A stretch of 44,183 bases of DNA from Escherichia phage Psq-1: the sequence record PQ595991.1. One strand, given 5' to 3'. Below the pieces are notes generated by a model that was not told the DNA's origin, searched no databases, and saw only the letters and a list, made by a program, of their open reading frames with translations. Position numbers and translations under genes: made by a program. How positions within the stretch are numbered: the stretch's first letter is position 1; every line of letters starts with the position of its first letter. Positions 11,973 through 43,426 of the stretch are shown in pieces.

Positions 11973-11991
11973 CGGGCGCACATCCCAAATG

Positions 11992-18567: not shown

Positions 18568-18575
18568 TAAAATGG

Positions 18576-18602
18576 CCCTCACTACAACGTGGGGGCTTTT
18601 TT
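18576..18602 (+). terminator. rho-independent terminator or attenuator
   Basis: CCCTCAC-TACAAC-GTGGGGG hairpin (one G-U pair) followed by CTTTTTT; abuts the next start codon. Confidence 0.45.
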
Positions 18603-24788: not shown

Positions 24789-24810
24789 GGGGCCATCCGG
24801 CCCCTTTTTT
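24789..24810. terminator. bidirectional rho-independent terminator
   Basis: GGGGCC-ATCC-GGCCCC hairpin with TTTTTT downstream on plus and an A-run on the other side, between convergent genes. Confidence 0.6.
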
Positions 24811-25774
24811 AATAGATGTTAGGAATTACGAGTAACGGGGTGGGTACTGCAATATTTTTACCCGGCATTTGGAATTGCTGCCGTGAATAGTTGCCGATTA
24901 CCCGGTTTTTGGCAATGCGCACATTACCGCCTGCCATTCGAATCCCGTTCATTCGAACGTGATTGTAGCCGCCGTTGTTCTCAATGAGCGCGCCGGTATA
25001 CGAAAGCTGGACCAGGCTATTGCCTATGTACTGATCGCCGCCGCCGATATAGATAAGGCGGTCATAAACAAATGGCTTATTCACTGTTGAGAACGTGACC
25101 TGACCCTGGTTGTTTGTCATGGTTATGCCGTTTCCAGGGGTGGGTGGCGTATTGTTGAATATAACCAGGTCCATTTCAACGGCAGCGCCTACGTCGTCAA
25201 TCCCACCATAGGACGCATTACGGACGATAATACTTCCGCCATCGAAGCCGACCGACACGTTTCCGTCGTCCCAGCGCGCGAATGGGACACCACCTACAGG
25301 TAACGGCATACTTCCGTTCACCCACACGCGCTGCGCATATTGGCAGGTCATTAGCCTGGATACATTTGATATGGCGGTGAAGTCCGTCGAGTTCGCCACC
25401 AGTAACCCTGCGTTGCGCGAACCCACCGGCAACACTTCCATGATCACCCCGCCCCATGTTGGAAGCCCGCTATATGCGCCATATGCGTCTTCACCTCGCA
25501 AGGTGATTCCGCCATCCCCGTTACGTTGTACTGAGGTGACGTAGAAAGGGTCGGGCAAGACCAGTGTCTGGTCGAATACTTCTATAACTTCAACGGGGCT
25601 TGTGAGCGCGACGACCAGATCTGACCCTGGCGTTAGCTGAGTGTTAATAGTAAGCGTCTTATCAGACTGGCAGCGCTGATAGAATGAGGTACAGAATGAC
25701 GGAGCGCGAAGTCCGGCTGTTATCTCCATCACCGGCCTTCCGTCGTTGTAGTCTATAAGTATTCCAGCGCCCAT
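24809..25774 (-). CDS. hypothetical Gly/Asn-rich protein, possible receptor-binding protein (321 aa)
   Basis: ATG 25774 with GGGAG upstream, overlapping the stop of the lipoprotein gene; beta-rich composition (GGGDQYIGNS, NNGGYNH); antisense between J and the tail fibre. Product assignment is by analogy only. Confidence 0.4.
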   Translation of the reverse strand: MGAGILIDYNDGRPVMEITAGLRAPSFCTSFYQRCQSDKTLTINTQLTPGSDLVVALTSPVEVIEVFDQTLVLPDPFYVTSVQRNGDGGITLRGEDAYGAYSGLPTWGGVIMEVLPVGSRNAGLLVANSTDFTAISNVSRLMTCQYAQRVWVNGSMPLPVGGVPFARWDDGNVSVGFDGGSIIVRNASYGGIDDVGAAVEMDLVIFNNTPPTPGNGITMTNNQGQVTFSTVNKPFVYDRLIYIGGGDQYIGNSLVQLSYTGALIENNGGYNHVRMNGIRMAGGNVRIAKNRVIGNYSRQQFQMPGKNIAVPTPLLVIPNIY

Positions 25775-25776
25775 AA

Positions 25777-25998
25777 TTACCACTCCCGAGATTTAACTGA
25801 TACCGTACCAGAGAAGTTGCCGTCACTATCCGCGGACAGGCCGGTGAAGCGCATGTCGACCTCCCCAGCAGGGACTTTTTGCCCGTCAACGTAGCGCAAC
25901 ATGCAGCTTCCGTAAGCTACCGTAATGCAATCGCCGTTGTTACGCTCTACCGCGCAGCCGGACAGAAGAACCGCACAAATCACAATTAATGTTTTCAT
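25777..25998 (-). CDS. small lipoprotein, Llp/Cor-like superinfection-exclusion candidate (73 aa)
   Basis: ATG 25998 with AGGGGA upstream; signal peptide MKTLIVICAVLLSGC with lipobox LSGC; four further Cys in the mature part. Confidence 0.6.
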   Translation of the reverse strand: MKTLIVICAVLLSGCAVERNNGDCITVAYGSCMLRYVDGQKVPAGEVDMRFTGLSADSDGNFSGTVSVKSREW

Positions 25999-26078
25999 GG
26001 TATCATCCCCTATATTTGGTTGAGTTTTAGTATTGCACCGCTCAACCAAGAATGCAACCAATTTATGAGGATTCAGCT

Positions 26079-27731: not shown

Positions 27732-27753
27732 AGGGGCCATTCGGCCCCTTTTT
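27732..27753. terminator. bidirectional rho-independent terminator
   Basis: AGGGGCC-ATTC-GGCCCCT hairpin followed by TTTTT, between convergent genes. Confidence 0.6.
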
Positions 27754-28327
27754 AATTTGAGTTTTCCCAGTCCATTTTGCGCCGCACAAGCGGGCTTTCG
27801 TAGTATTCCTTACCTTCCACTTCCACTAAATGCCAGTCATTCACAATCACGTATGGCTCTGCTATATCCTCAATCACGCCGTGCGCGCTATGCTGCCCGA
27901 ACGACACGCCAACCAGAATAACTCCGGCAACCCGACGGGAAAGATACTCGCGGGCACAACGGGCCTCAACCAGACCGCGACGGATGCCGCTGGTGGCTTT
28001 GACCTCATATGTCCAGACGGCATCAATCATGTGCTCTTTGTAGTCGGGACCGGATTTTACCTTGCGCTTGCCGACCATGATAATATCGCCGCGGTCAATG
28101 GTATTGGCGCTAAACAGGCCGGTACGCATGAGCAAGCCTTGAGGGATACAACTGCGCCCGCCTGCTTGCCCTTCCAGGTACATGCCCGCAAACATCTCGC
28201 CCAGCACACCGACCAGTCGGCTTTGCTTGCACGCGTCAGACTTTAAGCGCCATTGGTCAAACTCGATGCTTGCTATCATTGCCGCCAGGTGGAATTGTTT
28301 ACCAGATATTTCATATTCGCCGTACAT
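27752..28327 (-). CDS. hypothetical protein with PD-(D/E)XK-like signature (191 aa)
   Basis: RGDIIMVGKRK...GPDYKEHMIDAVWTYEVK resembles the D...(D/E)xK core seen in the VRR-NUC protein of this genome (PDLIIIINGKIVFVEVK). Weak. Confidence 0.35.
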   Translation of the reverse strand: MYGEYEISGKQFHLAAMIASIEFDQWRLKSDACKQSRLVGVLGEMFAGMYLEGQAGGRSCIPQGLLMRTGLFSANTIDRGDIIMVGKRKVKSGPDYKEHMIDAVWTYEVKATSGIRRGLVEARCAREYLSRRVAGVILVGVSFGQHSAHGVIEDIAEPYVIVNDWHLVEVEGKEYYESPLVRRKMDWENSN

Positions 28328-28369
28328 CGTGCGGTCCTCATTGATGCGGGCCGAAGCCCGCGATTAGAA

Positions 28370-28891
28370 TTATTTCAGTGCGCCAGTCACCAGTGTTTTT
28401 TCCATGTTGCGGAAGTCTTCCGGCGTCATGAGGATTTTGGACCCATCCTCGCCGGTGAGCACGACCATAGGCTGGACGTATTGCTCTGCGATGCCGAAAT
28501 TAGCGGCTTTAACCGTCTTGCCTGCCGATGACGAAGGATGCCACGCCCCCGCGGTGGCGATGGGCCAACCTTTAAGGCTGTCGTATTGCGCTGCCGTTGT
28601 ATCAACCTGAATCTCGTCGTGTACGGTCATGTACGACTCGCCCAGCAAAGCCGCATACGCTACCAGGTCGACGATATTGTCCTCCTGGTGCTTACGGTGC
28701 TGGCGTACCAGCTTCAGGCAGATCAAGAAGGTCCAGGCTTCTTGCTCGGTCAGGTCTCGACCGGTAAGCGCGTTAAACACGGCAGCAATTTGTTTTGCGC
28801 TGCGTTCCTCTTTCGCGTTGTCATAGCCGTTTTCTTTTCCTCGCTGTTCCATAGTGGTGGCGGCGTTTTTGCAGTATTCGTATGCTTTCAT
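28370..28891 (-). CDS. hypothetical protein (173 aa)
   Basis: Track ORF with RBS AAAAAGGA and a sigma70-like promoter upstream; no motif assigned. Confidence 0.45.
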   Translation of the reverse strand: MKAYEYCKNAATTMEQRGKENGYDNAKEERSAKQIAAVFNALTGRDLTEQEAWTFLICLKLVRQHRKHQEDNIVDLVAYAALLGESYMTVHDEIQVDTTAAQYDSLKGWPIATAGAWHPSSSAGKTVKAANFGIAEQYVQPMVVLTGEDGSKILMTPEDFRNMEKTLVTGALK

Positions 28892-28932
28892 TATGTGGTC
28901 CTTTTTAGGGGCAATATTGCCCCGACGCGTTA

Positions 28933-28961
28933 ACTATAGTGCAACCAACTATTGGTTGCAA
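28933..28961 (-). promoter_or_regulatory. sigma70-like promoter overlapping an inverted ATTGGTTGCA pair
   Basis: Minus strand reads TTGCAA (-35), 17-bp spacer, TATAGT (-10). The inverted repeat TGCAACCAA-CTA-TTGGTTGCA (28940-28960) overlaps it. Confidence 0.4.
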
Positions 28962-29419
28962 GTAAATTTTGCAACATTTATTGCGTAAATTTTCGGAACC
29001 AGATCGCTGCACGCCCGACGAATTGCCGCGATGTTCTTCTCGCAATCTTCAATGATGACCAGTTCCGACACGTCTGCGTAGCAGACCATTTTGAACACGG
29101 CGCACGCCTTAAACTCTGGCGGCGGGGTATCGTCCAGCATGTGGCGCATAAACAACCGGCCTGTCGGGAATACTTCCAGTTGCTCGGCGGTAGTCTCCCA
29201 ACATTCGCGCTGCCGGTTGGTCAGATAAGCGATCTCGAAGCCTTGCTCTTTATACATGCGCAACAGCGGCAGCATATCCATGTTCAGATCTTCGCGGACG
29301 TGCGCTTTGTGCCACTTCGCCCAAAAGGTGGATTTTGTTTTTATGCCCGGAACAAGGTCGGCGCGTGCATCACTCGAACCATTAATAACGCCATCAAGAT
29401 CACAAATCAGTAGTTTCAT
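28949..29419 (-). CDS. HAD-superfamily phosphatase (156 aa)
   Basis: HAD motif I CDLDGV near the N-terminus, motif II-like LTNR, motif IV-like IIED. Confidence 0.6.
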   Translation of the reverse strand: MKLLICDLDGVINGSSDARADLVPGIKTKSTFWAKWHKAHVREDLNMDMLPLLRMYKEQGFEIAYLTNRQRECWETTAEQLEVFPTGRLFMRHMLDDTPPPEFKACAVFKMVCYADVSELVIIEDCEKNIAAIRRACSDLVPKIYAINVAKFTCNQ

Positions 29420-29640
29420 TTTAAGCTCTCAATAAGGGTGTGTCGGGCGCTGCGCGCGGTGAAGGAGTTGCATACGAAATGGCAACGCTGAGTCATGACA
29501 AGCCAACCGGTGAGGTCAAGGCCCAGGATGTATTCGGGGCGAGACGCGCGCACCACACGATCGCGGCGTGGGTCAATACCGTAGTCTTTTTGCATTTGGT
29601 ATACTACCGCGGGGTCGCGGTCAACGATTAAGATATTCAA
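29416..29640 (-). CDS. hypothetical protein (74 aa)
   Basis: Track ORF with overlapping stop/start coupling to its neighbours. Confidence 0.35.
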   Translation of the reverse strand: MNILIVDRDPAVVYQMQKDYGIDPRRDRVVRASRPEYILGLDLTGWLVMTQRCHFVCNSFTARSARHTLIESLK

Positions 29641-30106
29641 GGAGTTCTCCTTCGCTCATTATTTCAATTTGTGCGCTGCCGATGGGTGGCGCTTCGTCAA
29701 ATATTATCAATTGCTGGCACTTGTTATTGCTCGGCCCGACTTCGCCGGTGACGGCGTGAATGAATCTAATCCGCCAGTCCAGAAGAATTATCATATTGGC
29801 AGTCTTCCGGGCCAACTTCGCCCACTTCGTCGACGTGTCTTGATTCAGCAGCATGACAGTCCGGCGACCGTGCGCTGCGCATTCCACCCACGGCAGCGGG
29901 TCGGAATACGGCGGATTGCACCACTTCCACCCTTTCAACTCTGCCCAGTCCACATCAAGCGCGCTGTGTTCCGCCGTGAAGTAACGCGGGAGCAGGTGGT
30001 TTGCATCGCTTGCCGCCATATCGTAACGGAATCGGTACTTCCGACGAAGCGGTTTAAATAGAGCTGGCGGCGTGCGCCAGCTATCCTTTTGCTCATTCTT
30101 CGTCAT
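29621..30106 (-). CDS. phage Dam-like DNA N6-adenine methyltransferase (161 aa)
   Basis: Motif WCNPPYSD (NPPY catalytic motif) and overall size typical of small phage Dam-family methylases. Confidence 0.7.
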   Translation of the reverse strand: MTKNEQKDSWRTPPALFKPLRRKYRFRYDMAASDANHLLPRYFTAEHSALDVDWAELKGWKWCNPPYSDPLPWVECAAHGRRTVMLLNQDTSTKWAKLARKTANMIILLDWRIRFIHAVTGEVGPSNNKCQQLIIFDEAPPIGSAQIEIMSEGELLEYLNR

Positions 30107-30545
30107 GGTCGGGGGCTATCGCGTAAAGGGCAATTTTCTTATCACTGTTTAACATGCGTAGTATGCGCTTTGACACCCCGGCGCTAAGCGCATACCGGTG
30201 TAATTCTTCGCGGCCCAGCCACCCTACCGGAACCAGATCTTTCCGGTCGATCTTAGACTGGCGACCTTTGGGGCGCACGTACTCCTCAGCCCGTTTGCAA
30301 TGCTCACGCAGCGCGTCGGCAGTGATGCGGTTTAGTGCAACGCTGGTGGTGTATCCGGTGCGCTGCATAATCCCCATCAATTCGAATAGCAGTTCGAAGC
30401 GCTCCTCTAACTCCTGGCGCACTTTCTTCTCCCCCTCATATAGCGACTGGTTGGCGTCCGCCAACGCGTTCGCACGTTTGGCCTGTTCACGGGCTTCGAG
30501 GCATTGCGCGGCCCAGTAATCTTTTTCTTCTTGTAAAATTTTCAT
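30093..30545 (-). CDS. hypothetical coiled-coil protein (150 aa)
   Basis: ATG 30545 with GGAGA upstream; charged helical composition. Confidence 0.45.
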   Translation of the reverse strand: MKILQEEKDYWAAQCLEAREQAKRANALADANQSLYEGEKKVRQELEERFELLFELMGIMQRTGYTTSVALNRITADALREHCKRAEEYVRPKGRQSKIDRKDLVPVGWLGREELHRYALSAGVSKRILRMLNSDKKIALYAIAPDHDEE

Positions 30546-30562
30546 CGTGTTGTCTCCAGATA

Positions 30563-30590
30563 TTAAAAAGGGCGTCCAACCGGACACCCT
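30563..30590 (-). terminator. rho-independent terminator or attenuator on the minus strand
   Basis: Minus strand reads AGGGTGTCC-GGTT-GGACGCCCT (one G-U pair) then TTTTTAAT; sits between two boxes and the next RBS. Confidence 0.45.
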
Positions 30591-30625
30591 CAATATAATG
30601 CAACCAATCTAGTTACGCAACCAAT

Positions 30626-30949
30626 TTATGCGTAGAAGTTCGGGTCGCGTGCAACGTCTACCAAATAAAGATTGCTCATGCGGTTGCCGTAGTGCCCTGG
30701 TGTGCGCTGGCGGCACACAACGGCGAAGCCGGGAGGGATTATATTGCCCGTCTCAATAATCCACGCTACGCGCGCGCCAGATAGCGTCTTGCCGTTGTAT
30801 TCGATGCGTGTTCCGCCATCGGCAGTGTTAAGGTTGCCAATCTTGCAGCCTGTGGACTTCAGGCGAATGACGCCGGTCTTGCTGTCGTAGGAAAAAAGCT
30901 GATTGGTCATTGCCACTGAAAAGTCGATGGCGTCGAATGCAGTATTCAT
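30626..30949 (-). CDS. HNH_3-like (homing-endonuclease-like) domain protein, possibly degenerate (107 aa)
   Basis: ARVAWIIETGNIIPPGFAVVCRQRTPGHYGNRMSNLYLV resembles the HRLVW...G.IP.G..VDH.NG..DNR..NL pattern, but the usual catalytic His is replaced (VVCRQ). Confidence 0.35.
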   Translation of the reverse strand: MNTAFDAIDFSVAMTNQLFSYDSKTGVIRLKSTGCKIGNLNTADGGTRIEYNGKTLSGARVAWIIETGNIIPPGFAVVCRQRTPGHYGNRMSNLYLVDVARDPNFYA

Positions 30950-31641
30950 TTTAAATTTTCCTCGTTAACCGCTATCGCGAAGCCGCGCGGGGTGAGCGAC
31001 CTGATTAATTTGGTGCGGGCAGATTTGCCTCCGAGGCGACTATACTGCTTCGAGTACCCTTTTTCAACGAAAACAGGTTTCTTCTCTGGCATACGGAAGC
31101 CGTTGCCGGTCCATAAGCAGGTCATCTTCGGATATGAATCGCGGGCGTTGATGTATTCCGGGAAGAGCGGGTGTACGTCATCCTCCGGCAGATATCCGCC
31201 ATACTCCCACGGGTCAAACGAGTGGTCCGGCTTACGCCATTGAGTTGATAGCACGCTGCGCGGATTCTCAATCATATACGGCACTTCAAAGAAATCACCC
31301 AGGTAAGCGGCGATCTTCGCGGTGCGCACCGCCTTAAGCTGGAAGGCAGGGTCGCGGGCGCGTTTGCGCGGGAAAGCTGGCGCACCGCTAACCGCCAGGT
31401 CCGTACACGGCGGGAATGCATAAATGATATCCGGCGTACCGAAATCGCCATTCATCGCGCGGTCTACAAAGTCCAGATCGATAAACTCATTACGATAGCG
31501 GATACCGCGCCCATAAATCCGGTAGTCCAGGTACGACCCGTGATCGGCTTCGGAGTAGTTGAAGCAATAACATTTATGCCCCATCTCGGCAGCACGCTCA
31601 ATCATCAAGCCGCTGCCGTCAAACAATGACCAAATTATCAT
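30946..31641 (-). CDS. compact C5-cytosine DNA methyltransferase-like protein (231 aa)
   Basis: Motif I-like SLFDGSG, PC motif AFPPC, ENV-like IENP, possible motif X GFAIAVNE; far shorter than canonical C5 methylases. Confidence 0.45.
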   Translation of the reverse strand: MIIWSLFDGSGLMIERAAEMGHKCYCFNYSEADHGSYLDYRIYGRGIRYRNEFIDLDFVDRAMNGDFGTPDIIYAFPPCTDLAVSGAPAFPRKRARDPAFQLKAVRTAKIAAYLGDFFEVPYMIENPRSVLSTQWRKPDHSFDPWEYGGYLPEDDVHPLFPEYINARDSYPKMTCLWTGNGFRMPEKKPVFVEKGYSKQYSRLGGKSARTKLIRSLTPRGFAIAVNEENLK

Positions 31642-33062
31642 TTGCGCGCCTTTTTAGCTTTCATGTATTCCATCAGGTCATCCTGTATATCTCGCTTACT
31701 GTCGCGACGCTCTGCGACTAGCTCATCCAGTGTGCCGCGCGCCTGGATAATGTAGACGAATACCGGTCGAGGGTGTCCGGCCTGCATCTGGCGAACCGGC
31801 CCGATACGCTCCACAATCTGCGAAAAATGCTCATAGTTCCAGGTGTCGGAGAAGATGGCAAGGTGGTGTCCGCCGTCCTGCAAGTTAAGGCCGTGGCCTG
31901 CCGATGCCGGGTGTGCAAACATGATGGGGATCTCGCCCCTGTTCCACGCTTCCATATCCTTATTGCCCTGCTTACCCTTACCCAACGAGACGCCGTGGGG
32001 AAATTTCTTCTTAAGACGTGCCAGGTCATGCTTATACTGATACGCAACGAGCAACGGCGCGCCGTTCAACTCCTCCACGATACTTTCCAGCGCGTCCAGT
32101 TTGGCGTCGTGAATCTTCACCCACTCGTCGGTCCGTTCGCCGTCTTCGTCCACCTTATACACAGCGCCGGAAGCAAGCTGAAGGCACTTAATTGTCTTCG
32201 ATGCCGCGTTCGCCGCTTCCACAGTCCCGCTTTCCAGTTCGGCAAATAGCTCGCTTTCAAACTGGTCGTAAATCTTGCGGGCTTTCTTCGGCAGGTCCAC
32301 AACAACCGGCGTATAGATTGGCTTGTCGCACCCGAAGTATTCAGCCGCGTCAACGGTGAGGGATACGTCAGACAGGCGTTGTTGGATCTCCTTCTCGGAG
32401 TTCTTTAGCGGGGCGTGCTGCATAGTGAAGCTGCCAGGCTTAACAGGCTTGCTAATAAACCAGCGGTCTGTGAATGCCTTATAACTACTGCCGAGGCGTT
32501 CGCCACCGTCGACAAACCACGTCTGACCCCATAGGTCTTTCAGTCCGTTTGGTGCGGGTGTGCCGGTAAGGTTAATCCAGCGCTTGACGCGCTTATGTGC
32601 GATCGCCGCCAGGGCGCGGGCGCGCTTACTTCCCTGCTTGCTTCTATATCCTTTCAGCTTAGTGGATTCATCGGCAACAACTACCGTAAAGGGCCACTCG
32701 TCGCCGCAATACTCGACAAGCCACTCAACCACATCATAGTTAACACAAACCACGTTAGCGTCGCTCTCAAGCGCAGCGATGCGGTCCTTCTCCGACCCGG
32801 TGCCGTCTACTACCAGCAGGGCGGGGAAGCGCCATTTTTCTTGTTCCGGGGGCCATGTGCCCGATGCAACGCGCAGCGGGGCAAGCACCAGTACGCGGTC
32901 CTCCTGGTTGGACAGGATGCCGGTCTGGAACATTTTATTCAGCGCCCACATGGTCGCGCCGGTTTTACCCGACCCCATTGTCGCCCATATATTGCATCGC
33001 TTATGCTTGAGGATGAACGCGGTTATCAACTTCTGATATTCGCGACGTCGGAAACGTGCCAT
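31638..33062 (-). CDS. SNF2-family DEAD-like helicase
   Basis: ATG 33062; Walker A ATMGSGKT, DExx box VVVADEST, motif III LTGTPAPN. Confidence 0.8.
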   Translation of the reverse strand: MARFRRREYQKLITAFILKHKRCNIWATMGSGKTGATMWALNKMFQTGILSNQEDRVLVLAPLRVASGTWPPEQEKWRFPALLVVDGTGSEKDRIAALESDANVVCVNYDVVEWLVEYCGDEWPFTVVVADESTKLKGYRSKQGSKRARALAAIAHKRVKRWINLTGTPAPNGLKDLWGQTWFVDGGERLGSSYKAFTDRWFISKPVKPGSFTMQHAPLKNSEKEIQQRLSDVSLTVDAAEYFGCDKPIYTPVVVDLPKKARKIYDQFESELFAELESGTVEAANAASKTIKCLQLASGAVYKVDEDGERTDEWVKIHDAKLDALESIVEELNGAPLLVAYQYKHDLARLKKKFPHGVSLGKGKQGNKDMEAWNRGEIPIMFAHPASAGHGLNLQDGGHHLAIFSDTWNYEHFSQIVERIGPVRQMQAGHPRPVFVYIIQARGTLDELVAERRDSKRDIQDDLMEYMKAKKARK

Positions 33063-33066
33063 ATCT

Positions 33067-33291
33067 TTATTCCGCCTTTTTCCAGACTTCGGTTTCACTG
33101 TTCCAGTTCCTTTTTGTGGCGTCGTAGTTGGTGCGGTGCCCGATGTGCACACCCGTCGCCCGGAAGCTCTTAAATTTTTGCCAGCACACCGTCAACGGCA
33201 GCGGGTACTTCATGCCCGCGATAAACCATACGCGATCGCCTGGTTTGCATTCGCCCAGTGTGGTGAGTCGGTAGCGTTCTTTCATCGTCAT
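33067..33291 (-). CDS. hypothetical protein (74 aa)
   Basis: ATG 33291 with GGGAGA upstream; directly downstream of a minus-strand terminator. Confidence 0.35.
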   Translation of the reverse strand: MTMKERYRLTTLGECKPGDRVWFIAGMKYPLPLTVCWQKFKSFRATGVHIGHRTNYDATKRNWNSETEVWKKAE

Positions 33292-33298
33292 GTCTCCC

Positions 33299-33322
33299 AA
33301 AAAATGGCGGGACAAGCCCGCC
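33299..33322 (-). terminator. rho-independent terminator or attenuator on the minus strand
   Basis: Minus strand reads GGCGGG-CTTGT-CCCGCC then ATTTTTTGG; the stem contains a GCGGGACA box. Confidence 0.4.
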
Positions 33323-33329
33323 GTATTAA

Positions 33330-33503
33330 TTATTTTTGTTCTGCGCGGTAGCGGCGCTGCCGTTCGCGCTCTTTTTTATTGCGGCACGATTTGCACTCTG
33401 CCCGATACCCGTCCGGGCTTCGCGCAGTCTTACCGGTGTATTTGTGGAACTGGGATAGCGGTTTAACGCAGCCGCAATTACTGCAGCGTTTTTCTTCAAT
33501 CAT
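33330..33503 (-). CDS. small zinc-ribbon protein (57 aa)
   Basis: ATG 33503 with GAGGA upstream; CSNCGC ... CKSC four-Cys arrangement, basic C-terminus. Confidence 0.4.
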   Translation of the reverse strand: MIEEKRCSNCGCVKPLSQFHKYTGKTARSPDGYRAECKSCRNKKERERQRRYRAEQK

Positions 33504-33534
33504 TTCTAAAATCCTCGTTAGTGCTAACCTGCTC

Positions 33535-33563
33535 ACTATACTGTTAAGCGACCAATTCAGCAA
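33535..33563 (-). promoter_or_regulatory. candidate sigma70 promoter overlapping an ATTGGTTGC box
   Basis: Minus strand reads TTGCTG (-35, inside TTATTGGTTGCTG), 17-bp spacer, TATAGT (-10). Confidence 0.35.
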
Positions 33564-33822
33564 CCAATAAATCACAGTCGGCTATGTTGTCTATAACGCG
33601 AACGTCCGCACCGCGGCGGGCCATTCGCTCATGTTCTCGTACCTGGTGCGGCTTTGGTTTACCGCCTGGGCGCTTCACTTCGACGAAAACTATCTTGCCG
33701 TTGATGATGATTATCAGGTCGGGCGCTCCTGCGCGCCCCTCCCATGCCACTTTACGGCAGAATCCGCCGACGGCTTTCACCCTCTTCATAAGGTAACTTT
33801 GGATCTTGCCTTCTGGTGTCAT
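33544..33822 (-). CDS. VRR-NUC domain nuclease (92 aa)
   Basis: APDLIIIINGKIVFVEVKRPGGKPKPHQ matches the PD-(D/E)XK core of VRR-NUC proteins. Confidence 0.7.
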   Translation of the reverse strand: MTPEGKIQSYLMKRVKAVGGFCRKVAWEGRAGAPDLIIIINGKIVFVEVKRPGGKPKPHQVREHERMARRGADVRVIDNIADCDLLVAELVA

Positions 33823-36113
33823 TATTTTCTGTACCTGTACATAATGTCGCCTTCCGCGGCAAGCGGGAAGCCTTTCGCCCAAACAGGGAGGTCGCACATC
33901 AGCGCGCACAACTCCTCGGTTGTGTAGTCGTCAGTATCCGGCACTTCGGTTATCAGTTCATCGTGTACGGACAGTACGATCTCATATCCCGCAGATTCAA
34001 CGCCCGGCATGGACCATGCGAGGATATCGCGGCACAGAGCCTGCACGATGTTTTCCGTCAGTTTGCCGCCGTAGGTGTACTGGAATCCCCACTGGCGCGT
34101 CGTCTGATTCTCACCCTGATATTTAATGCGGGTGCTGGTGCGCTTCTTGCCGGTGTCTTCGTCGATCTCGGTCGTGACAGACAGCGCGATGCCCGGATAA
34201 CTCATGATGCGCCCCGACGGCAACTCGATTTTCAACCACCACCCCGCGGCGTTCGGGTCGTCGCGCTCCTCGTCGAAGGTGGGGTCGTGCTTCGCCTTCG
34301 TGCGGACTATCTTGAGCGCTTTCTTGCCATCAGGGCGAACGTTCGCGCCAGCCCAGTACGCTTTGCCCGGATTGCGGATCGCGCAGAGCACCGCGTCTTC
34401 CAGTTCAGCCCAAAATGCTACCGTCTTCGGGTGCGACTCGCGCCACATACGTTTGATCGCATCACACGTCAACCATACGTTTTTCGGCAGTATATAAGTT
34501 GGGCGCTCGTCCTTCTTGCCAGGCTTCGGCGGGCGCTTCGCTTCGTTAATGCGGGCATATTCATAACCACGTTTCGCCGCAGCCCAAATATGATCGGGGA
34601 ATGTACCCTTCATGACGTCCGCCATCGCATACAGGTCTAGACCCAGGTTTTTAGCGAACTGCAAGAACGCCGCAACGCCGCCGCCATAGCCTAGTCCCAA
34701 TTCGCACGCCTTACCGATCTGGCGTAAGTCTTTGCGGTTGGCTTTAATGTATTCCGGGTCGAGGCCAAACATCTTACCGGCAGTTTCACAATAAATATCG
34801 CGACCGGCCTTAAACACCATTAGCGCGGTTTTCTCGCCAGCGACCCAGGCAAGCCCGCGTCCTTCCACGTTGGAATAGTCCGCTACGACAAACTTCTTGC
34901 CCTTCGCCGGAATAATGCACCCGCGAACGGTCGAGGCCGTTAGCTTCGATATGTCATACGCCCAGTGCGCTGTCCCGCGTAACAGGGAATTGATGCCGTT
35001 GGTAAGCATGTGCGACCGGACCCAAAAAGAAACGTCGCTCTCGCCTTCACGGCGTTTAATCTTCCCTTCGTGGTCGTCGCTATACTCGCCGCGTGCCAGG
35101 TTTTGAGGTTGAAAGCCTTTACCGGCCCAGCGTAGCGTGCGCTTTGCCCCACCATACTGAAGACAACCACGGCGGCGACCATCGGCGGACAGGCCATTGA
35201 CAAGCGGATTGTATTTAGTAGATGCCGTTGATGACGCACCGAGGCGCATTTCGATAAGCGCTTTGCCTTCGTCGGGGAAATCCGGGTCTTCCAGCAGGTC
35301 GTTAAGCGTGGATTTCTGCGCGTTGTGGATTGTGAACGCAGGCGCGAGGTCGCGCAGCGCTGGCAGGAAGTCATTGCCGGTCAGCTTACCACCGAAGCGC
35401 TCCCAGGCTTCTTCCTTCAACTCTTCCTTATGCGCCTGCACCGCTTTGATCGCAGCGCGCGCCAGGTCAACGTCCACGTAGAAGCCGCGGTCGTTAATCA
35501 ATTGGTCGATAAGCAGGATTTCGTCTTCCTTCGGCGTATTACCCCAGTCCGGTATGCGCCAATAGACTTCCCTCATCGCGATGATGTCCAGCGCGGCATA
35601 GCGCAGGAATTTAGCCCACTCCTCGGGGTGCGTCTTGCGCGTGTAGCGGCGGATTTTGTAGGTCTTAGGGGTAGGCTTACAGAATCGTTTAATCAGCGCC
35701 TTGCCTGCCTTATCCTTCGCGTGTTCTGCGTCAACACCCAACACCTGGCATTGCATATCGAGGCTACCCGGCAGCGCGTGTCGAAAGGCCATAATCATGG
35801 TATCTTCGATCTGGCACACTGGCAGATCTATACCCCACTTTTCGCGAATAACCAGGCGGTCAAACAGGAGGCCGTTAGCCATCACTATTTTTGCTTTCTT
35901 GCGGGATACACGGCGGAGCGCCTTGCGCAGTTCGCGCGGCATCGTAGGGGATTCGGTGCAATCCCAGGTCTGTACGCGGCCCTCGTCGATGGCGTAGGTG
36001 CAGATCATAATCTCGGTTGTCGGGTGCTCTGCGTAGGCGTATGCGCCAACTTTCTTCAGGTCTACCCCGCTAAATGTCTCGGTATCGAGAAACAGGCGTT
36101 TGAAGTCTTTCAT
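33822..36113 (-). CDS. DNA polymerase I-type (family A) with 3'-5' exonuclease domain
   Basis: ATG 36113 with GAGGA upstream; exo motif FLDTETFS near the N-terminus; 763 aa with a family A polymerase-like C-terminal half. Confidence 0.8.
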   Translation of the reverse strand: MKDFKRLFLDTETFSGVDLKKVGAYAYAEHPTTEIMICTYAIDEGRVQTWDCTESPTMPRELRKALRRVSRKKAKIVMANGLLFDRLVIREKWGIDLPVCQIEDTMIMAFRHALPGSLDMQCQVLGVDAEHAKDKAGKALIKRFCKPTPKTYKIRRYTRKTHPEEWAKFLRYAALDIIAMREVYWRIPDWGNTPKEDEILLIDQLINDRGFYVDVDLARAAIKAVQAHKEELKEEAWERFGGKLTGNDFLPALRDLAPAFTIHNAQKSTLNDLLEDPDFPDEGKALIEMRLGASSTASTKYNPLVNGLSADGRRRGCLQYGGAKRTLRWAGKGFQPQNLARGEYSDDHEGKIKRREGESDVSFWVRSHMLTNGINSLLRGTAHWAYDISKLTASTVRGCIIPAKGKKFVVADYSNVEGRGLAWVAGEKTALMVFKAGRDIYCETAGKMFGLDPEYIKANRKDLRQIGKACELGLGYGGGVAAFLQFAKNLGLDLYAMADVMKGTFPDHIWAAAKRGYEYARINEAKRPPKPGKKDERPTYILPKNVWLTCDAIKRMWRESHPKTVAFWAELEDAVLCAIRNPGKAYWAGANVRPDGKKALKIVRTKAKHDPTFDEERDDPNAAGWWLKIELPSGRIMSYPGIALSVTTEIDEDTGKKRTSTRIKYQGENQTTRQWGFQYTYGGKLTENIVQALCRDILAWSMPGVESAGYEIVLSVHDELITEVPDTDDYTTEELCALMCDLPVWAKGFPLAAEGDIMYRYRK

Positions 36114-36339
36114 TGCTGGATCCTCACTACGGCGTCGGCGCTGCCGATCATGGAGAAGATACCGTCGGAAAGGGTTATCTCCTCGCCGTTGTTGCGAATC
36201 TCGGCAACGGTGAAATATTCCCCCAGTAACTTGGACCATACTCGCATTCCGACTTTTACTTCGCTGGCTTTAATGCGCATTTTTCATTGTCCTATTAAAA
36301 AAGCCCGCATTAAGCGGGCTTGAATAGTGGGCTTTGCCC

Positions 36340-37068
36340 TTAACGGCGGCGACGTTTACGTGGTGCTTCGTCTTCGTCGTCGTCCTCATCTTCGTCATCG
36401 CGTGGCTTACGACGTTTACGAGGTTTCTCGTCTTCATCTTCGTCGTCGTCATCGCGGCGCTTGGATTTTTTGGACTTGCGCGGGCTTTCATCTTCGTCAT
36501 CGTTGTCCAGGTCTTCGTCGGAGCAAGAAGCCCCGCCACCACCGAAGGATTCACCATCATCGCGGAAGCGAAGACCCAGCAGGCCGGCCCCGAGGCCTTT
36601 ACCGTTGGTATTGTTCCATGCCCAAATATCCAGGGACACGTTGCAATAACAACCGGAGTAGATCTCCCGGCCTTCGATCTCGTCGCCTTCTACGGTCAGA
36701 CCTTGTTCCGTCTGCTTCTCGCCGAGTGACGTTTGAATGTTTGGTTGTTTGAACGATTTGGTGTTGATATACAACATGCCTTCGAATTCTTCGGTTACTT
36801 CGTCGCGCTCGTCACCGTCGCGAACAGCGCATTCCTTAGAATCCTGGGCGTAGTGGCGCTCCATCCACTTATCGGCGTTCTTCTCGGATTTCAGCTTATC
36901 GGTGAGCACTGCGCGCGCTGCCGCTTCCACTTTGTCCACCTGCGGATCTTCTTTATCCAGAAGAATCACGGCACGGTATGCCGGTTTCTGGCCATCCTTT
37001 TTAGGGGTATCGCGCTCCCAAATATTAAGGAAACATACACGCACATTTTTCAGGTTGACTTTAGCCAT
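36340..37068 (-). CDS. DUF2815-like ssDNA-binding-type protein with charged low-complexity tail
   Basis: N-terminus MAKVNLKNVRVCF typical of this family; C-terminal 80 aa alternate acidic runs with KRRK/PRKRRRR blocks. Confidence 0.55.
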   Translation of the reverse strand: MAKVNLKNVRVCFLNIWERDTPKKDGQKPAYRAVILLDKEDPQVDKVEAAARAVLTDKLKSEKNADKWMERHYAQDSKECAVRDGDERDEVTEEFEGMLYINTKSFKQPNIQTSLGEKQTEQGLTVEGDEIEGREIYSGCYCNVSLDIWAWNNTNGKGLGAGLLGLRFRDDGESFGGGGASCSDEDLDNDDEDESPRKSKKSKRRDDDDEDEDEKPRKRRKPRDDEDEDDDEDEAPRKRRRR

Positions 37069-37158
37069 TTTCAAATTCCTCATTTTCACATGTATCGGGG
37101 TTATTGTGAGCCACCCCGTTCGGCTTGGTTGCTAATCTACTTGGTTGCGCCTAAGCGG

Positions 37159-37401
37159 TCAAGCACTTTCATTAAAAAGATTTCTGGTCACGTAGTTGGT
37201 GGCGTTCTCGATCCAGCTTAACGGCGGTCGGTCGATGTTCTTCTCCACCAAGTCGACGGCAGCGTCACTATATCCATCGTCCAGCCAGCGGGTCGGATGG
37301 CGAATCATCCAGGCCACCATTAACACGCCTTGCACGCAATGCAGGATAAAGCCCAGCGCGCCGAGCAAAAACATCAATAAGATTGCAAATACTTTATTCA
37401 T
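37159..37401 (-). CDS. small membrane protein (80 aa)
   Basis: Two hydrophobic segments (FAILLMFLLGALGFILHCV, GVLMVAWMI). Confidence 0.4.
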   Translation of the reverse strand: MNKVFAILLMFLLGALGFILHCVQGVLMVAWMIRHPTRWLDDGYSDAAVDLVEKNIDRPPLSWIENATNYVTRNLFNESA

Positions 37402-38824
37402 TGCTTAAGTCCTCGTCAGTAGCTTCAGACCACGTGGGGCGCGGGTCGTCGATTGGTGCTAACACCGGTTTTGCAGGTGCGCGTGTGATTTTAGCACACA
37501 GCTTCGCCCACACTTTCGGTTTTTCGTCCTTCAGCACCTTCTCGGCATCGGTAGGGCTGAGCAATGTTTCTTTGTACATCACATCGCGCTTAATCCGAGC
37601 CTTAGTGAATATTTCAATCACTTCGCTCTCGTCCGCCCACTTACGGATTCCTTCCTTACCGGCAACCATCTTGAGGCCCAGCGATTCGCCATCCCCAGCC
37701 ATTACCGCTTTGAATACCGCGGACTCGATAGCTTTGATGTGCTGGCGCATTGCGTCCAGGCCTTCATAAGCCTTGCGCAGTTCCGCCGCGCTCATAGCTC
37801 CTGGTGTGGATTCCTTCTTGCCTCGTTTAGCACGTCGGGCAGCCTTCCGGGCTTCGCGGGCCATATTGCGATTGTGGTTGGCGCATTCTTCCTCGGTCGC
37901 CACGCTCACGTCGTCGCCCAGGTCTTCGTCGGTTGCCGTTGGCGGGGTCATCGTGTCGATTGCGGCCTTCGCCCGGACGCTGCACTGATCCGCGAAGCGA
38001 CACCACTGGCACGCATCAACGCTCGGTCGGAAGTCGGCGCGGTTGAGTCCCTTTTTGCCGCGTTCGTACGCATCCAGTGCGATGACAGCGCGCTTGGACG
38101 CAAACTTCGCGAATATTTCCAGGGCTTCTACCGAAATATCCCACTCTGACGCCCCGCCGCAATACGGCTGGAAGATGACCAGGCGCACGGTCGTAATGTC
38201 GTACATGGTTTGCAGCTTGCGCAGCAGGCCGAGCGCGTACAACATAAGCTGTTTGTTTTCTTTCGCCTCGACCTTATGTCGACCAGTCTTCAGGTCGCCA
38301 ACAATCAGCATGTACGTGCCGTCGGTCTTCTTCATGACCATGACCATATCGGCAGTGCCGAACGTTTTAACCTTGTTACCGTCGATCTCGACGCCGGGGT
38401 GGAGAACGCGGGTGAGATCGGAGCGCATCTCAAGCTGGACAAACTCCGCCACTTCAAGGAGCGGTCGCCAGTGGTCGATGTACGCATCGCACTGCTTCAC
38501 CATATCGTCGTTGACCAGTACGCCGCCTTTCGGTGCTTTTGGGTGGGCCTTTACCGGTCCCTTGCCTTCGTTCTCGACGTAACATCCTTTATACGTCTTC
38601 GCGGTTATTTTCTTCTCACCGGCGATAATGCGGTTTAGCACCACTTCAGATACTGTGTGCATACTCGTACCGTTAATCGCTGCCTGCCCGGATTCGTTCG
38701 GGATATCTTTTTCTACCACCAGGGCGGCGGGACACCCCATCCATTTTTTAGCACCGGATGGTCCGAGTAATGAGTGCTCCGTATTGCTACCGGATTGCGT
38801 CTTACGTTTTGGTTTAATCGCCAT
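37394..38824 (-). CDS. DUF2800-like PD-(D/E)XK (Cas4-like) nuclease
   Basis: 476 aa; nuclease-core-like LIVGDLKTGRHKVEAK; C-terminal Cys cluster CQWCRFADQC consistent with an Fe-S site. Confidence 0.6.
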   Translation of the reverse strand: MAIKPKRKTQSGSNTEHSLLGPSGAKKWMGCPAALVVEKDIPNESGQAAINGTSMHTVSEVVLNRIIAGEKKITAKTYKGCYVENEGKGPVKAHPKAPKGGVLVNDDMVKQCDAYIDHWRPLLEVAEFVQLEMRSDLTRVLHPGVEIDGNKVKTFGTADMVMVMKKTDGTYMLIVGDLKTGRHKVEAKENKQLMLYALGLLRKLQTMYDITTVRLVIFQPYCGGASEWDISVEALEIFAKFASKRAVIALDAYERGKKGLNRADFRPSVDACQWCRFADQCSVRAKAAIDTMTPPTATDEDLGDDVSVATEEECANHNRNMAREARKAARRAKRGKKESTPGAMSAAELRKAYEGLDAMRQHIKAIESAVFKAVMAGDGESLGLKMVAGKEGIRKWADESEVIEIFTKARIKRDVMYKETLLSPTDAEKVLKDEKPKVWAKLCAKITRAPAKPVLAPIDDPRPTWSEATDEDLSNE

Positions 38825-39012
38825 TATTCCACCCTTGAAAACTGAGCAATGTAATAGTCATGTTTAACACCGGCCCGCTTCGCGGCTTCGTTCATGGTAG
38901 CCGCCAAACCTCTGGCTTGAGTCCAGCAGCAATTCCAGTTCTGATTCATAACGATTTCTGGTTGCTCATCGCCGGTAATACGGCAGCGAAATAAAACGAA
39001 AAATATAGCCAT
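38824..39012 (-). CDS. hypothetical protein (62 aa)
   Basis: Track ORF in an operon gap; low confidence. Confidence 0.3.
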   Translation of the reverse strand: MAIFFVLFRCRITGDEQPEIVMNQNWNCCWTQARGLAATMNEAAKRAGVKHDYYIAQFSRVE

Positions 39013-39264
39013 TTATTTTGTCTCCCAGCGGTCAATTGTTTTTGCTTCGGATGCAACGGCGAAACGAACATATTCCAGATTTGAATCAGCCCAAATATAA
39101 AAGTCGGGATTAGTAAAGGTGGCGCGCTTAATTTGCGCGGGTGTGTTGCGGCGTTTATCAATTACGGCAACGCGCGATTGAAAGCTGCCGATGCGTTCGA
39201 ATAGCCAATAGTACGGGCGCTGGTCGCGGGAATCCACCGCCTCGATTAGCGTGAAGCGTGCCAT
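39013..39264 (-). CDS. hypothetical protein (83 aa)
   Basis: Track ORF with GAGGA-type RBS. Confidence 0.4.
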   Translation of the reverse strand: MARFTLIEAVDSRDQRPYYWLFERIGSFQSRVAVIDKRRNTPAQIKRATFTNPDFYIWADSNLEYVRFAVASEAKTIDRWETK

Positions 39265-39277
39265 TGTCTCGTCCTCT

Positions 39278-39304
39278 AAAAATAGGCCCGCAGATTAGCG
39301 GGCC
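39278..39304 (-). terminator. rho-independent terminator or attenuator on the minus strand
   Basis: Stem GGCCCGC / GCGGGCC with 6-nt loop, followed on the minus strand by TATTTTTA. Confidence 0.4.
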
Positions 39305-39312
39305 GGATAATA

Positions 39313-39822
39313 TTAGTCTTCCAGTTCGAAATAGGTTTCGACGATTTCTTTCAGATCTTTGTGGAAGTCTTCGACGTCGTCATCTTCCAGTTTAGCGATT
39401 GATTTGATCTCGAACGATTCCAGCAGGTCGTCAAATTCGTCGTTGGCGTCGTCGTCATCACCACCGGCGATAATCGCGGCATACTGTTTGATTTCGTCGC
39501 GCATCTCTGCCAGCGGATCGGCATCTTTCTTACCTTTGCCTTTCGCCGTGGCTTTTTTACCTTTCGCCGGTTTTTCGTCTTCGGCTTCATCGTCGTCATC
39601 TTCTACGACTTCTTTTTTGGCCTTACCTTTCGCCGGTGCTTTTTTGGTTTTCGCCGGTGCTTCGTCTTCAGCGTCGTCATCTTCTACGACTTCTTTTTTC
39701 GCCTTAGACGGCTTCTTGTCTTCCTGCGTACCAACGGCAGCGCCAACGGTTTCATAATGTTTAGCGATTGTTTCCAGTGCTACTACGCCGCGAGTAATCA
39801 GGTTTACGATTTGTTCAAACAT
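39313..39822 (-). CDS. highly charged tandem-repeat protein (169 aa)
   Basis: ATG 39822 with GGAGA upstream; two 26-27-aa repeats KKEVVEDDD-EDE-PAK-KKA-AKGK-KK plus acidic D/E runs; nucleotide-level tandem repeat at about 39540-39720. Confidence 0.5.
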   Translation of the reverse strand: MFEQIVNLITRGVVALETIAKHYETVGAAVGTQEDKKPSKAKKEVVEDDDAEDEAPAKTKKAPAKGKAKKEVVEDDDDEAEDEKPAKGKKATAKGKGKKDADPLAEMRDEIKQYAAIIAGGDDDDANDEFDDLLESFEIKSIAKLEDDDVEDFHKDLKEIVETYFELED

Positions 39823-40018
39823 GGTATATCTCCGATTGGTTAAGTTTAGGTGTCGACCATTAACTTCGTCGGTGGCCTTAACATATTGCCAGGTTACGCG
39901 TTCTCCCGTTCGGGTAGTGGACCTGGTTATATAATCACGGTTGGGAATCCTGACACTTCGATCCGGCCCCTGCGTTGCCCCTCTCCAGTTTGCGTCCTGC
40001 ATCCTGTCGACGAGGTGA

Positions 40019-40047
40019 ATATTAGATTGGTTGCATGAGGGAGTCAA
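40019..40047 (-). promoter_or_regulatory. sigma70-like promoter for the minus-strand early/replication operon
   Basis: Minus strand reads TTGACT (-35), 17-bp spacer containing TGCAACCAA, TAATAT (-10). Confidence 0.4.
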
Positions 40048-40059
40048 CAACTAATTTCA

Positions 40060-40163: not shown

Positions 40164-40192
40164 TTGACACCCTGCGGTTTTAGGTGTAGTTT
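40164..40192 (+). promoter_or_regulatory. sigma70-like promoter for the HTH and primase genes
   Basis: Perfect -35 TTGACA (40164-40169), 17-bp spacer, weak -10 TAGTTT (40187-40192). Confidence 0.4.
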
Positions 40193-40223
40193 CGTTGGTC
40201 ATTAACCAACCGGAGACAGAACA

Positions 40224-40553
40224 ATGAATATCGACGACGCAATCGAAATGTTAACTAAGACTGTTTGCAGTGAGACTAGCCGGTCTTGGGCATATACAGA
40301 TGCCGTTGGGGCGGTGCTATTTGAAATCGAACGTCTGCGACTTACCGAAAAAGAATTGCGCGCGAAGCTGGAATTACTCAACGGTACGGCAGCCAGCAAG
40401 CTGCAAAAGCACAATGAAGAAATGGAAGAATACAAAAAACAGGTTATCCGTTTGCGCGATGAGGGGAAGTCATGGGCGATGATCGCCGAGTTGACAGGAA
40501 TTAATCAGAGCACCGTGCGCTCCTGGGTACGCAATAACAAAACTTCGAAATAA
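40224..40553 (+). CDS. HTH domain protein, putative regulator (109 aa)
   Basis: C-terminal HTH GKSWAMIAELTGINQSTVRSWVRNNK; coiled-coil middle; first gene of the plus-strand early unit. Confidence 0.5.
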   Translation: MNIDDAIEMLTKTVCSETSRSWAYTDAVGAVLFEIERLRLTEKELRAKLELLNGTAASKLQKHNEEMEEYKKQVIRLRDEGKSWAMIAELTGINQSTVRSWVRNNKTSK

Positions 40554-40723
40554 GGCAACGGCAATGAGCTTAATTAAATTCGCTGTAACAAGACCCTCAT
40601 GGGCGATGATCGCCGAGTTGACAGGAATTAATCAGAGCACCGTGCGCTCCTGGGTACGCAATAACAAAACTTCGAAATAAGGCAACGGCAATGAGCTTAA
40701 TTAAATTCGCTGTAACAAGACCC
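40470..40723. repeat. exact 127-bp tandem duplication (40470-40596 and 40597-40723)
   Basis: Both copies read identically by eye; they span the last 28 codons of the HTH gene and the first 11 codons of the primase gene. Confidence 0.9.
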
Positions 40724-43399: not shown

Positions 43400-43426
43400 G
43401 GTTGCACACCAACAGGAGGGCGGAAC

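Follow-up and report, generated by a model that had tools for sequence, protein, structure and literature searches.

Probable intrinsic terminator hairpins and box-bearing promoter-like sites in the minus-strand gene cluster of Escherichia phage Psq-1

In Escherichia phage Psq-1, hairpins followed by U tracts lie on the minus strand immediately upstream of the ribosome-binding sites (RBSs) of genes within a long cluster that includes the DNA polymerase and helicase genes. How are genes placed behind apparent transcription terminators expressed, and does their expression call for a dedicated phage mechanism? An earlier reading of the same DNA (hereafter the original prediction) described a single 12-kb operon in which read-through across such sites would imply attenuation or antitermination.

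The window, that is, the whole stretch of 44,183 nucleotides that was analyzed (PQ595991.1), is a complete Dhillonvirus genome with ~92% identity to coliphages SSL-2009a and EK99P-1, and it appears to contain the whole genome in circularly permuted form. The 12.6-kb region around the feature matches 184 phage records, the best being those of Escherichia phages SSL-2009a, HH3 and EK99P-1 (~92%), all members of Dhillonvirus. Plus-strand genes run from 40224 through the end of the window and on from its start to 27719, and comprise genes for a helix-turn-helix (HTH) protein, a primase-helicase, lysis, terminase, head and tail. The minus-strand cluster spans approximately 40050 to 27752; its first part encodes the acidic orf51 product, an exonuclease, a Gp2.5/Enc34-type ssDNA-binding protein (SSB), DNA polymerase and a VRR-NUC nuclease, and the remainder a Lar-like protein, a helicase, methylases, an HNH endonuclease and small unknown genes. 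The genes to which we refer most often are the following.

39313-39855, minus strand: orf51, the first gene of the cluster, encoding an acidic protein
36340-37089, minus strand: SSB gene, Gp2.5/Enc34-type ssDNA-binding protein
33330-33506, minus strand: Lar-like gene, restriction-alleviation protein
30626-30949, minus strand: HNH endonuclease gene
40224-40553, plus strand: gene of a 109-aa HTH protein, opening the divergent plus-strand unit
4053-6088: terminase genes, more than 15 kb from the module at 30565-30625 (the T4 module)

Anatomy, placement and conservation of the terminator-like hairpins

Four hairpin-plus-U-tract structures were found in the cluster. Three of them (T1, T3 and T4) had been predicted earlier and lie on the minus strand within 2 nt of the predicted positions; T2, absent from that prediction, is a fourth structure of the same kind and the best-conserved terminator of the set.

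39278-39304, minus strand: T1, GGCCCGCuaaucuGCGGGCC then UAUUUUU (stem 39304-39285, tail to 39278)
36295-36321, minus strand: T2, AAGCCCGCuuaauGCGGGCUU then UUUU (stem 36321-36301, U run to 36295)
33299-33322, minus strand: T3, GGCGGGcuuguCCCGCC then AUUUUUU (stem 33322-33306, tail to 33299)
30565-30591, minus strand: T4, GAGGGUGUCCgguuGGACGCCCUU then UUU (stem 30591-30568, U run ending at 30565)

All four are intergenic, in sense orientation, and begin 7-34 nt past the stop codon of the upstream gene (orf51, SSB, Lar-like and HNH, respectively). T1 is found 8 nt past the orf51 stop and is followed by the RBS AGAGGA and the ATG (39264) of the next gene, and T2 is located 18 nt past the SSB stop, followed by the RBS AGGA and by a small ORF (ATG at 36280) that precedes the DNA polymerase gene. 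T3 lies 7 nt past the Lar-like stop and precedes the RBS GGGAG and the ATG (33285) of orf40, after which comes the helicase gene; T4, downstream of the HNH gene, is followed by the RBS GGAG and an ATG at 30545. Since the Shine-Dalgarno sequence is situated only 0-7 nt past each hairpin, with the start codon 12-20 nt past it, the earlier statement that there is no space for a promoter between hairpin and RBS holds at T1-T4 alike.

The stems comprise 6-10 bp with 6-7 G-C pairs, the loops 4-6 nt and the tails 5-7 U; the tail sequences of T1-T4 (UAUUUUU, UUUUUU, AUUUUUU and UUUUU) are invariant or near-invariant among relatives. Taken alone, the hairpins T1/T2/T3/T4 have predicted free energies of -15.8/-14.7/-12.0/-17.2 kcal/mol. 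In folded windows of 41-46 nt, for which the values of T2 and T4 include a few flanking pairs, the minimum free energy (MFE) was -17.2 kcal/mol for T1 (3/200 shuffles equally stable), -17.0 kcal/mol for T2 (z -4.4; stem of 8 bp, 6 U) and -17.9 kcal/mol for T4 (z -3.4; full hairpin of 10 bp). The stability of these three is clearly higher than that of shuffled sequence; that of T3 is so only marginally, with a dG of -12.0 that makes it the weakest hairpin in the set (z of only -1.6; 17 of 200 shuffles equally stable). Along the operon strand (27752-40050) there are four hairpin-plus-U-tract sites with dG <= -12, versus 0.22 +/- 0.44 in 200 dinucleotide-preserving shuffles, none of which reached four sites. 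Moreover, all four fall in intergenic gaps, which by summed gap length make up about 3.6% of the operon.

To follow the sites through the phage family, 43 related loci centered on the helicase gene (helicase identity from 99% to about 42%) were compiled, and terminator-like sites were mapped relative to tblastn gene hits. Within Dhillonvirus, T1 (9/9), T3 (13/13) and T4 (16/16) occur at the same place in every locus covering them; T3 is missing from more distant relatives. T2 is the most deeply conserved, with a hairpin and U tract 18-21 nt past the SSB stop in 22 of the 28 loci with an SSB hit, a spacing also retained by most relatives with an SSB identity as low as 40-47%. Its counterpart is displaced farther downstream in three loci (L023, L036 and L037), overlaps the 3' end of the SSB gene in L020 and is absent from L042 and L043; in nearly all loci an RBS and a start codon come next. 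The stem of T2 in locus L015 is wholly different in sequence (ACGGCCUCgcauGAGGCCGU), and in L015 and L018 unrelated hairpins stand in place of T1, the pattern that would be expected if structure rather than sequence is under selection. Covariation points the same way, although modestly, given that the close relatives are about 90% identical: both partners have changed in four pairs of T2, which none of 500 shuffles equaled, and all 16 T4 sequences form every pair (100%), with one compensatory change from C-G to U-A in two phages and an invariant T5 run. The variation at T3 is uninformative in this respect.

As a prediction, the hairpins are correct but not new, since the homologues of T1-T4 have already been marked in a public record. 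In RefSeq NC_073058.1 (Dhillonvirus vB_EcoS_WFI) all four homologues, plus one site at the end of the cluster, are labeled 'putative transcriptional terminator', with energies of -17.2, -13.6, -12.6 and -15.3 at the homologues of T1-T4, and the T4 homologue is annotated as a terminator in several other public records. These few Dhillonvirus records show the same hairpins at the same four intergenic positions (after the homologues of orf51, the DUF2815/Enc34 SSB, the Lar-like gene and the HNH gene), but as software predictions without functional interpretation, and they list no promoters or boxes in the region; most Dhillonvirus records carry no terminator features. Judged by anatomy, placement and conservation, T1-T4 are most likely ordinary Rho-independent terminators.

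Box-bearing promoter-like sites and a candidate regulator

The 8-mer TTGGTTGC occurs 19 times in the window, counting both strands, whereas a random 8-mer would be expected about 1.3 times over 2 x 44 kb. The copies are nearly always intergenic and usually paired; within the cluster, each one overlaps an operon-strand sigma70-like promoter. The five promoter-like sites of the cluster are listed below.

40047-40019, minus strand: promoter-like site for orf51; TTGACT, 17 nt containing the inverted box TGCAACCAA, TAATAT
37162-37134, minus strand: promoter-like site for the SSB gene; TTGACC, 17 nt containing the inverted box CGCAACCAA, TAGATT
33563-33535, minus strand: promoter-like site for the Lar-like gene; TTGCTG inside the box TTGGTTGCT, 17 nt, TATAGT
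30592-30625 (hexamers 30620-30592), minus strand: promoter-like element abutting T4; box 1, -35-like sequence, 17-nt spacer with box 2, -10-like sequence
28961-28933, minus strand: promoter-like site for the last two genes; TTGCAA, 17 nt, TATAGT, spanning the perfect inverted box pair TGCAACCAAtagTTGGTTGCA

In alignments of 9-16 phages the promoter hexamers and the boxes are invariant while the intervening bases vary. At the orf51 site the hexamers and the box are conserved and the spacer is variable; the homologue of this site is annotated as a promoter in phage HK578 (NC_019724.1), whose annotators marked the homologous promoters of the divergent region. The SSB site lies directly upstream of its gene; another box and a 5'-UTR hairpin, itself conserved, come after it. 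The spacer of the Lar-like site holds a second box, TTGGTCGC, and here hexamers and boxes are invariant in 13 phages among variable neighboring bases. The composite TTGGTTGCNNTATANT (TTGGTTGC-NN-TATANT) has three copies in the genome (9950-9965, 28933-28948 and 30592-30607), all on the minus strand and each upstream of a minus-strand gene, and no copies in shuffled sequence.

The single 12-kb operon of the original prediction is thus not borne out, given box-bearing sigma70-like promoters at 40047-40019, 37162-37134, 33563-33535, 30620-30592 and 28961-28933; the best model for the minus-strand region, as far as its motifs allow one to judge, is a series of nested transcription units with at least five putative sigma70-like promoters instead of one operon running from promoter to end. 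As orf51, SSB and the Lar-like gene each have a predicted promoter of their own, T1, T2 and T3 would each close a one-gene unit. By promoter scan and reading of the gaps, no recognizable promoter of their own was found for the genes behind T1, T2 and T3, namely exonuclease, DNA polymerase and helicase, and we therefore infer that read-through must reach them. AT-rich -10-like strings do precede T1, T2 and T3; inspected by eye, they lack a -35 partner and were rejected as promoters.

The situation at T4 is different. Box 1 (ATTGGTTGCG, minus strand, 30625-30616) holds the -35-like TTGCGT (30620-30615), box 2 (ATTGGTTGCA, minus strand, 30608-30599) lies inside the 17-nt spacer, and the -10-like TATATT occupies 30597-30592 on the same strand. 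With 3/6 matches in TTGCGT, 17 bp, and 5/6 in TATATT, the hexamers fall below the threshold of the consensus scanner. Across 16 phages neither the boxes nor TATATT vary, in contrast to the free variation of the 7-nt stretch between the boxes. We regard the boxes and TATATT as one case of a genome-wide promoter-like architecture and as a candidate promoter for the genes after T4. The earlier claim that downstream genes depend on read-through because no new promoter fits in accordingly stands for T1, T2 and T3, behind which no promoter was found, and would fail for T4, where the promoter-like element ends 1 nt before the hairpin. A pair of boxes and a plus-strand TATAAT had also been pointed out beside T4: the boxes are present, on the minus strand, and the TATAAT (30593-30598), the complement of the overlapping minus-strand TATATT, has no -35 partner. 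An antisense promoter at this TATAAT was rejected for that reason and because the box orientation agrees with the two other sense-strand copies.

Because the -10 ends 1 nt before the T4 hairpin, a transcription start at the usual spacing of ~7 nt (near 30585) would fall within the 5' arm of that hairpin. In folding predictions, RNAs from this start retain only a stem of 4-6 bp, separated from the U tract; without the complete hairpin, termination would not be expected. Polymerases coming from upstream would instead copy the full 10-bp hairpin, so that T4 would end the helicase-methylase-HNH stretch while RNAs started inside its 5' arm would run on into the distal genes. The T4 module would in this way close one unit and open the next within 60 bp. 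It is also a cassette boundary, with at least three different genes behind it across phages.

What might bind the boxes? Known host-factor sites (sigma54 -24/-12, IHF, FNR and DnaA) do not appear to fit, and a search of the literature for the box sequence matched only primers. The 109-aa protein encoded at the head of the divergent plus-strand unit has Pfam matches to HTH_23 (4.6e-7) and Sigma70_r4_2 (2.1e-6), with the HTH located C-terminally; its last 60 residues are near-invariant in 20 homologues, and its N-terminus is variable. The AF2 model consists of a long helix plus the HTH (pLDDT 83.7), and its fold matches were confined to generic HTH domains (DeoR, IstA, resolvase, LuxR and sigma region 4), all with E > 0.7. 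A TTGGT-N5-ACCAA palindrome comes after the predicted promoter of this gene (TTGACA, 17, TAGTTT; plus strand near 40170-40200). The protein is present in 8/8 Dhillonvirus loci that reach its position, all eight of which carry boxes, and it was undetected in box-poor distant relatives. That it binds the TTGGTTGC boxes is a reasonable guess. The box motif and this possible regulator are the only parts of the system that seem undescribed.

Probable passive read-through and its alternatives

We consider it probable that T1-T4 are terminators read by host RNA polymerase and act as leaky, partial stops within the early/replication cluster. The units P40047-orf51-T1, P37134-SSB-T2 and P33535-Lar-T3 would each combine a box-bearing promoter with a terminator of their own, and exonuclease, DNA polymerase, helicase and methylases would be made only by polymerases that read through. 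The expected outcome is that proteins needed early or in stoichiometric amounts (orf51, SSB and Lar-like) would be plentiful and catalytic replication proteins scarce. Graded expression along the cluster, as the original prediction had proposed, remains the best model, in view of the terminators after orf51, SSB and Lar and of their recurrence in the late operon. There, on the plus strand, the design is the same: terminators at 11991-12010, 14824-14840 and 18574-18597 come directly after the major capsid, major tail and tape-measure genes, respectively, and others stand just before the holin and TerS genes. The arrangement is hence a genome-wide trait, not peculiar to the minus-strand cluster.

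Published data are in keeping with leaky termination. In one phage, more than 60% of mapped terminators have an efficiency below 50%, and the balancing of phage expression by leaky terminators, with T7 as a precedent, is documented (PMC9163698). Only four phage proteins were detected in the proteome of E. coli infected with Dhillonvirus EE09 (PMC10673088); two of the four, CDS56 and CDS61, are homologues of orf51 and SSB, whose genes lie just upstream of T1 and T2. Because so few proteins were detected, this agreement with grading is weak, and it may reflect protein stability or size instead of transcript level. The literature, genome papers included, yielded nothing on regulation and no transcript data when searched for Dhillonvirus promoters, terminators and transcriptomes; in a 'transcriptome' paper on a Dhillonvirus host, infected cells were not sequenced.

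The attenuation or antitermination that had been taken to follow from read-through is not implied by it, as leaky terminators are usual in phages (PMC9163698). Regulated antitermination, in which efficient terminators would be overcome at a set time with the help of a phage factor or RNA element, nevertheless deserves to be weighed: the essential polymerase and helicase genes lie behind terminators that are strong on paper (an 8-bp stem and 6 U at T2), time-dependent read-through is known in another phage (PMC9163698), and the many small early ORFs with no known function could hide an antitermination factor. Against this, a search of the whole window with Rfam at the gathering threshold gave no matches and thus no nut/put-like RNA. 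As the original prediction had likewise reported, no N-, Q- or other antiterminator family was recognized, here in Pfam and PHROGs scans of ~25 small ORFs or in the annotations of three relatives. The hairpins that follow the promoters in 5'-UTRs have conserved stems and freely variable loops, and a nut-like protein-binding hairpin would differ; furthermore, the recurrence in the late operon of a terminator behind abundantly expressed genes fits passive grading. We therefore think that regulated antitermination is quite unlikely. A second alternative holds that the hairpins act mainly after transcription, as 3'-end stabilizers or RNase barriers for the mRNA of the upstream gene, and terminate little. 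Stable 3' stem-loops do protect bacterial mRNAs, and the hairpins trail genes expected to need abundant, stable mRNA (orf51, SSB and Lar, and capsid and tail on the other strand). But a conserved U tract, needed for termination and not for mere protection, directly follows every stem, and it is lacking from the phage's own 5'-UTR hairpins. A predominantly stabilizing role appears very unlikely, and the roles of stabilizer and terminator are in any case compatible with each other.

The module at 30565-30625 invites yet another interpretation, namely that it is primarily a cos site or other site of double-strand cleavage, with the boxes serving terminase binding and the hairpin acting as a packaging signal. 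The EE09 record OR756193, re-ordered by PhageTerm with a COS(5') call, has its start precisely within the T4 module, with ...ATTGGTTGCATT as its last letters and ATCTTAAGGGTGTCCGG... as its first; a 10-nt 5' overhang, ATCTTAAGGG, was reported, equivalent to ATATTGAGGG at 30596-30587 of the window. That the top plus-strand and top minus-strand peaks fall 10 nt apart inside the module is unlikely to be pure noise; in addition, an HNH gene lies directly upstream and the genes behind the module differ among phages. A true cos site generally gives a PhageTerm T near 1, whereas the EE09 values are 0.30 and 0.36, compared with 0.25 and 0.34 at unrelated runner-up positions, and only 1 of 157 records starts at the T4 module. 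Further observations favor headful packaging or speak against cos: a headful call was made for Dhillonvirus BF9, the numbering of HK578 begins at the TerS start codon, TerL is of the Terminase_6N/6C type, and TerS resembles P22 gp3 and Sf6 TerS, if only weakly and at scores under the family cut-offs (a comparison of the terminase subunits with PDB sequences gave no hits). The distance of the terminase genes from the module and the presence of boxes at about ten other promoter regions are likewise a poor fit to a unique packaging site. With peaks barely above background, we keep the cos site as a minor and unlikely rival of the terminator and promoter-like reading of the module.

Relation to known systems and significance

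Internal, inefficient terminators are known to balance phage and bacterial operons; the E. coli rplL-rpoB attenuator is one example, and another is the cascade of promoters and terminators in filamentous phage f1/M13. T-phi of T7, located after the major capsid gene 10, offers a close likeness, being a terminator placed right after the gene of a bulk product, with downstream genes reached via read-through; it differs in acting on T7 RNA polymerase, whereas the Dhillonvirus cluster is presumably transcribed by the host enzyme. The lambda N/nut and Q/qut systems and HK022 put resemble Psq-1 in that a long phage transcription unit has essential genes located beyond intrinsic terminators, but they rely on nut, qut or put sites or on N/Q proteins, none of which was found here with Rfam across the window or with Pfam and PHROGs among ~25 small ORFs. 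The sharing of 60 bp by the T4 promoter-like element and its terminator may resemble the coupled or overlapping promoter-terminator elements of bacteria (preprint 'Widespread coupling of promoters and terminators of transcription in bacteria'); a start inside the hairpin arm is what we would propose for this phage.

A more ambitious reading would unite three functions at T4: a terminator, a promoter whose transcripts escape it, and a site recognized by a genus-specific regulator, the 109-aa HTH protein, through binding to the TTGGTTGC boxes at about ten promoters. This combination is speculative and in our view improbable. Were it true, the HTH protein would time the whole early program. In an extreme version, in which the weak EE09 terminus was real, the cohesive-end cut would pass through the -10, and the distal genes would be transcribed from this promoter only after circularization of the genome.

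The leaky-terminator reading, which we favor, would make Psq-1 a usual case: compact phage genomes routinely set protein ratios by leaky intrinsic terminators placed right before the next RBS. The analysis yields a predicted transcription-unit map for the Dhillonviruses, common coliphages in phage collections and therapy work. Four natural terminators and at least five candidate promoters may serve as genetic parts. Finally, the conserved 8-9 bp box at nearly all early promoter regions, co-occurring with a conserved HTH protein, may provide a handle on the timing of gene expression in these phages.

Distribution of the box motif

The sequence TTGGTTGC(A) is the most over-represented non-coding 8-mer in the window, where it occurs in 19 copies as follows:

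2488-2519, 9943-9965, 28940-28960, 30599-30624, 37125-37149, 42968-43011 and 43367-43406: box pairs
26053, 33559, 40027 and 43282: single boxes

Nearly all early or "island" promoter regions carry these boxes, in either orientation, and at promoter regions the boxes abut or overlap the -10 element. Related loci assigned to Dhillonvirus contain 5-12 copies each, whereas more distant relatives contain 0-4. No description of the sequence was found in a literature search.

One box-bearing promoter-like element, which abuts the intrinsic-terminator-like hairpin T4 and forms with it the T4 module, corresponds to a position highlighted in the Dhillonvirus relative EE09. The published EE09 "cos" overhang (OR756193, positions 1-10) equals 30587-30596 (minus strand) of Psq-1 and coincides exactly with the -10 element and the 5' arm of the hairpin, although its PhageTerm statistics are weak. 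At this conserved element the top EE09 read-start peaks of the two strands are separated by 10 nt.

Further promoter-like sites on the minus strand

Two additional good to strong promoter-like sites were recorded, together with orf51, the first gene of the minus-strand early/replication cluster:

40150-40059, minus: strong promoter-like site (TTGAAA, 17, TGtAATAAT; 10/12) with hairpin-U9
39313-39855, minus: orf51, PHROG 3127, unknown function
31039-31067, minus: good promoter-like site (TTGAAA, 17, TATAGT; 10/12)

The hairpin and U9 tract of the first unit (40093-40059, minus strand) follow about 55 nt past its promoter-like site, whose homologue is annotated as a promoter in HK578, and the whole unit directly adjoins the orf51 promoter on the upstream side. 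From this arrangement one would predict either a terminator with an insulating role or a short non-coding transcript. The orf51 protein is very acidic, rich in lysine and aspartate/glutamate, and contains the internal repeat KKEVVEDDD twice; it matches no known family beyond PHROG 3127. Only four proteins of EE09 were detected in cells infected with that phage, and the orf51 homologue is one of them; the orf51 protein may be a DNA mimic or a host-takeover protein.

The site at 31039-31067 lies within the methyltransferase gene, about 90 nt 5' of the HNH endonuclease gene, a location suggesting that the latter has its own promoter. Mobile endonuclease genes frequently do.

Repeated sequences

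15543-15830, plus: iteron-like GCGGGACA array, 6 copies, non-coding
43059-43170, plus: iteron-like GCGGGACA array, 6 copies, non-coding
40470-40596 and 40597-40723: perfect 127-bp tandem duplication

Of the two arrays, which share the longer similarity tgcataaagtaaGCGGGACAaaaaGCGGGACA ... cagtctttcagactagacgggg, one is located directly 3' of the primase gene; the second lies between the gene for the tape-measure chaperone and that for the tape measure itself. They may serve as origins of replication or as arrays to which a protein binds. The duplication takes in the end of a helix-turn-helix (HTH) gene, the gap that follows it and 33 nt from the start of the primase gene, and creates a chimeric 38-aa ORF (40564-40680). 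It is missing from SSL-2009a and EK99P-1, in which the HTH-primase gap is 10 nt, and could be a real recent event or an assembly artefact.

A candidate regulator and the minus-strand islands

40224-40553, plus: HTH gene; 109-aa product, long helix and C-terminal HTH
9156-9965, minus: island, EK99P-1 gp07 homologue
24809-26061, minus: island, DUF6453 membrane protein and small gene

The last 60 residues of the HTH protein are nearly invariant among 20 homologues. Its "transposase" label in public records looks wrong, and we regard it as a candidate box-binding regulator. Both islands lie inside the structural module of the plus strand; relatives annotate the small gene of the second as a lipoprotein or superinfection-exclusion protein. 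Each is headed by a box-bearing promoter-like site, and the two islands therefore probably belong to the early, not the late, regulon.
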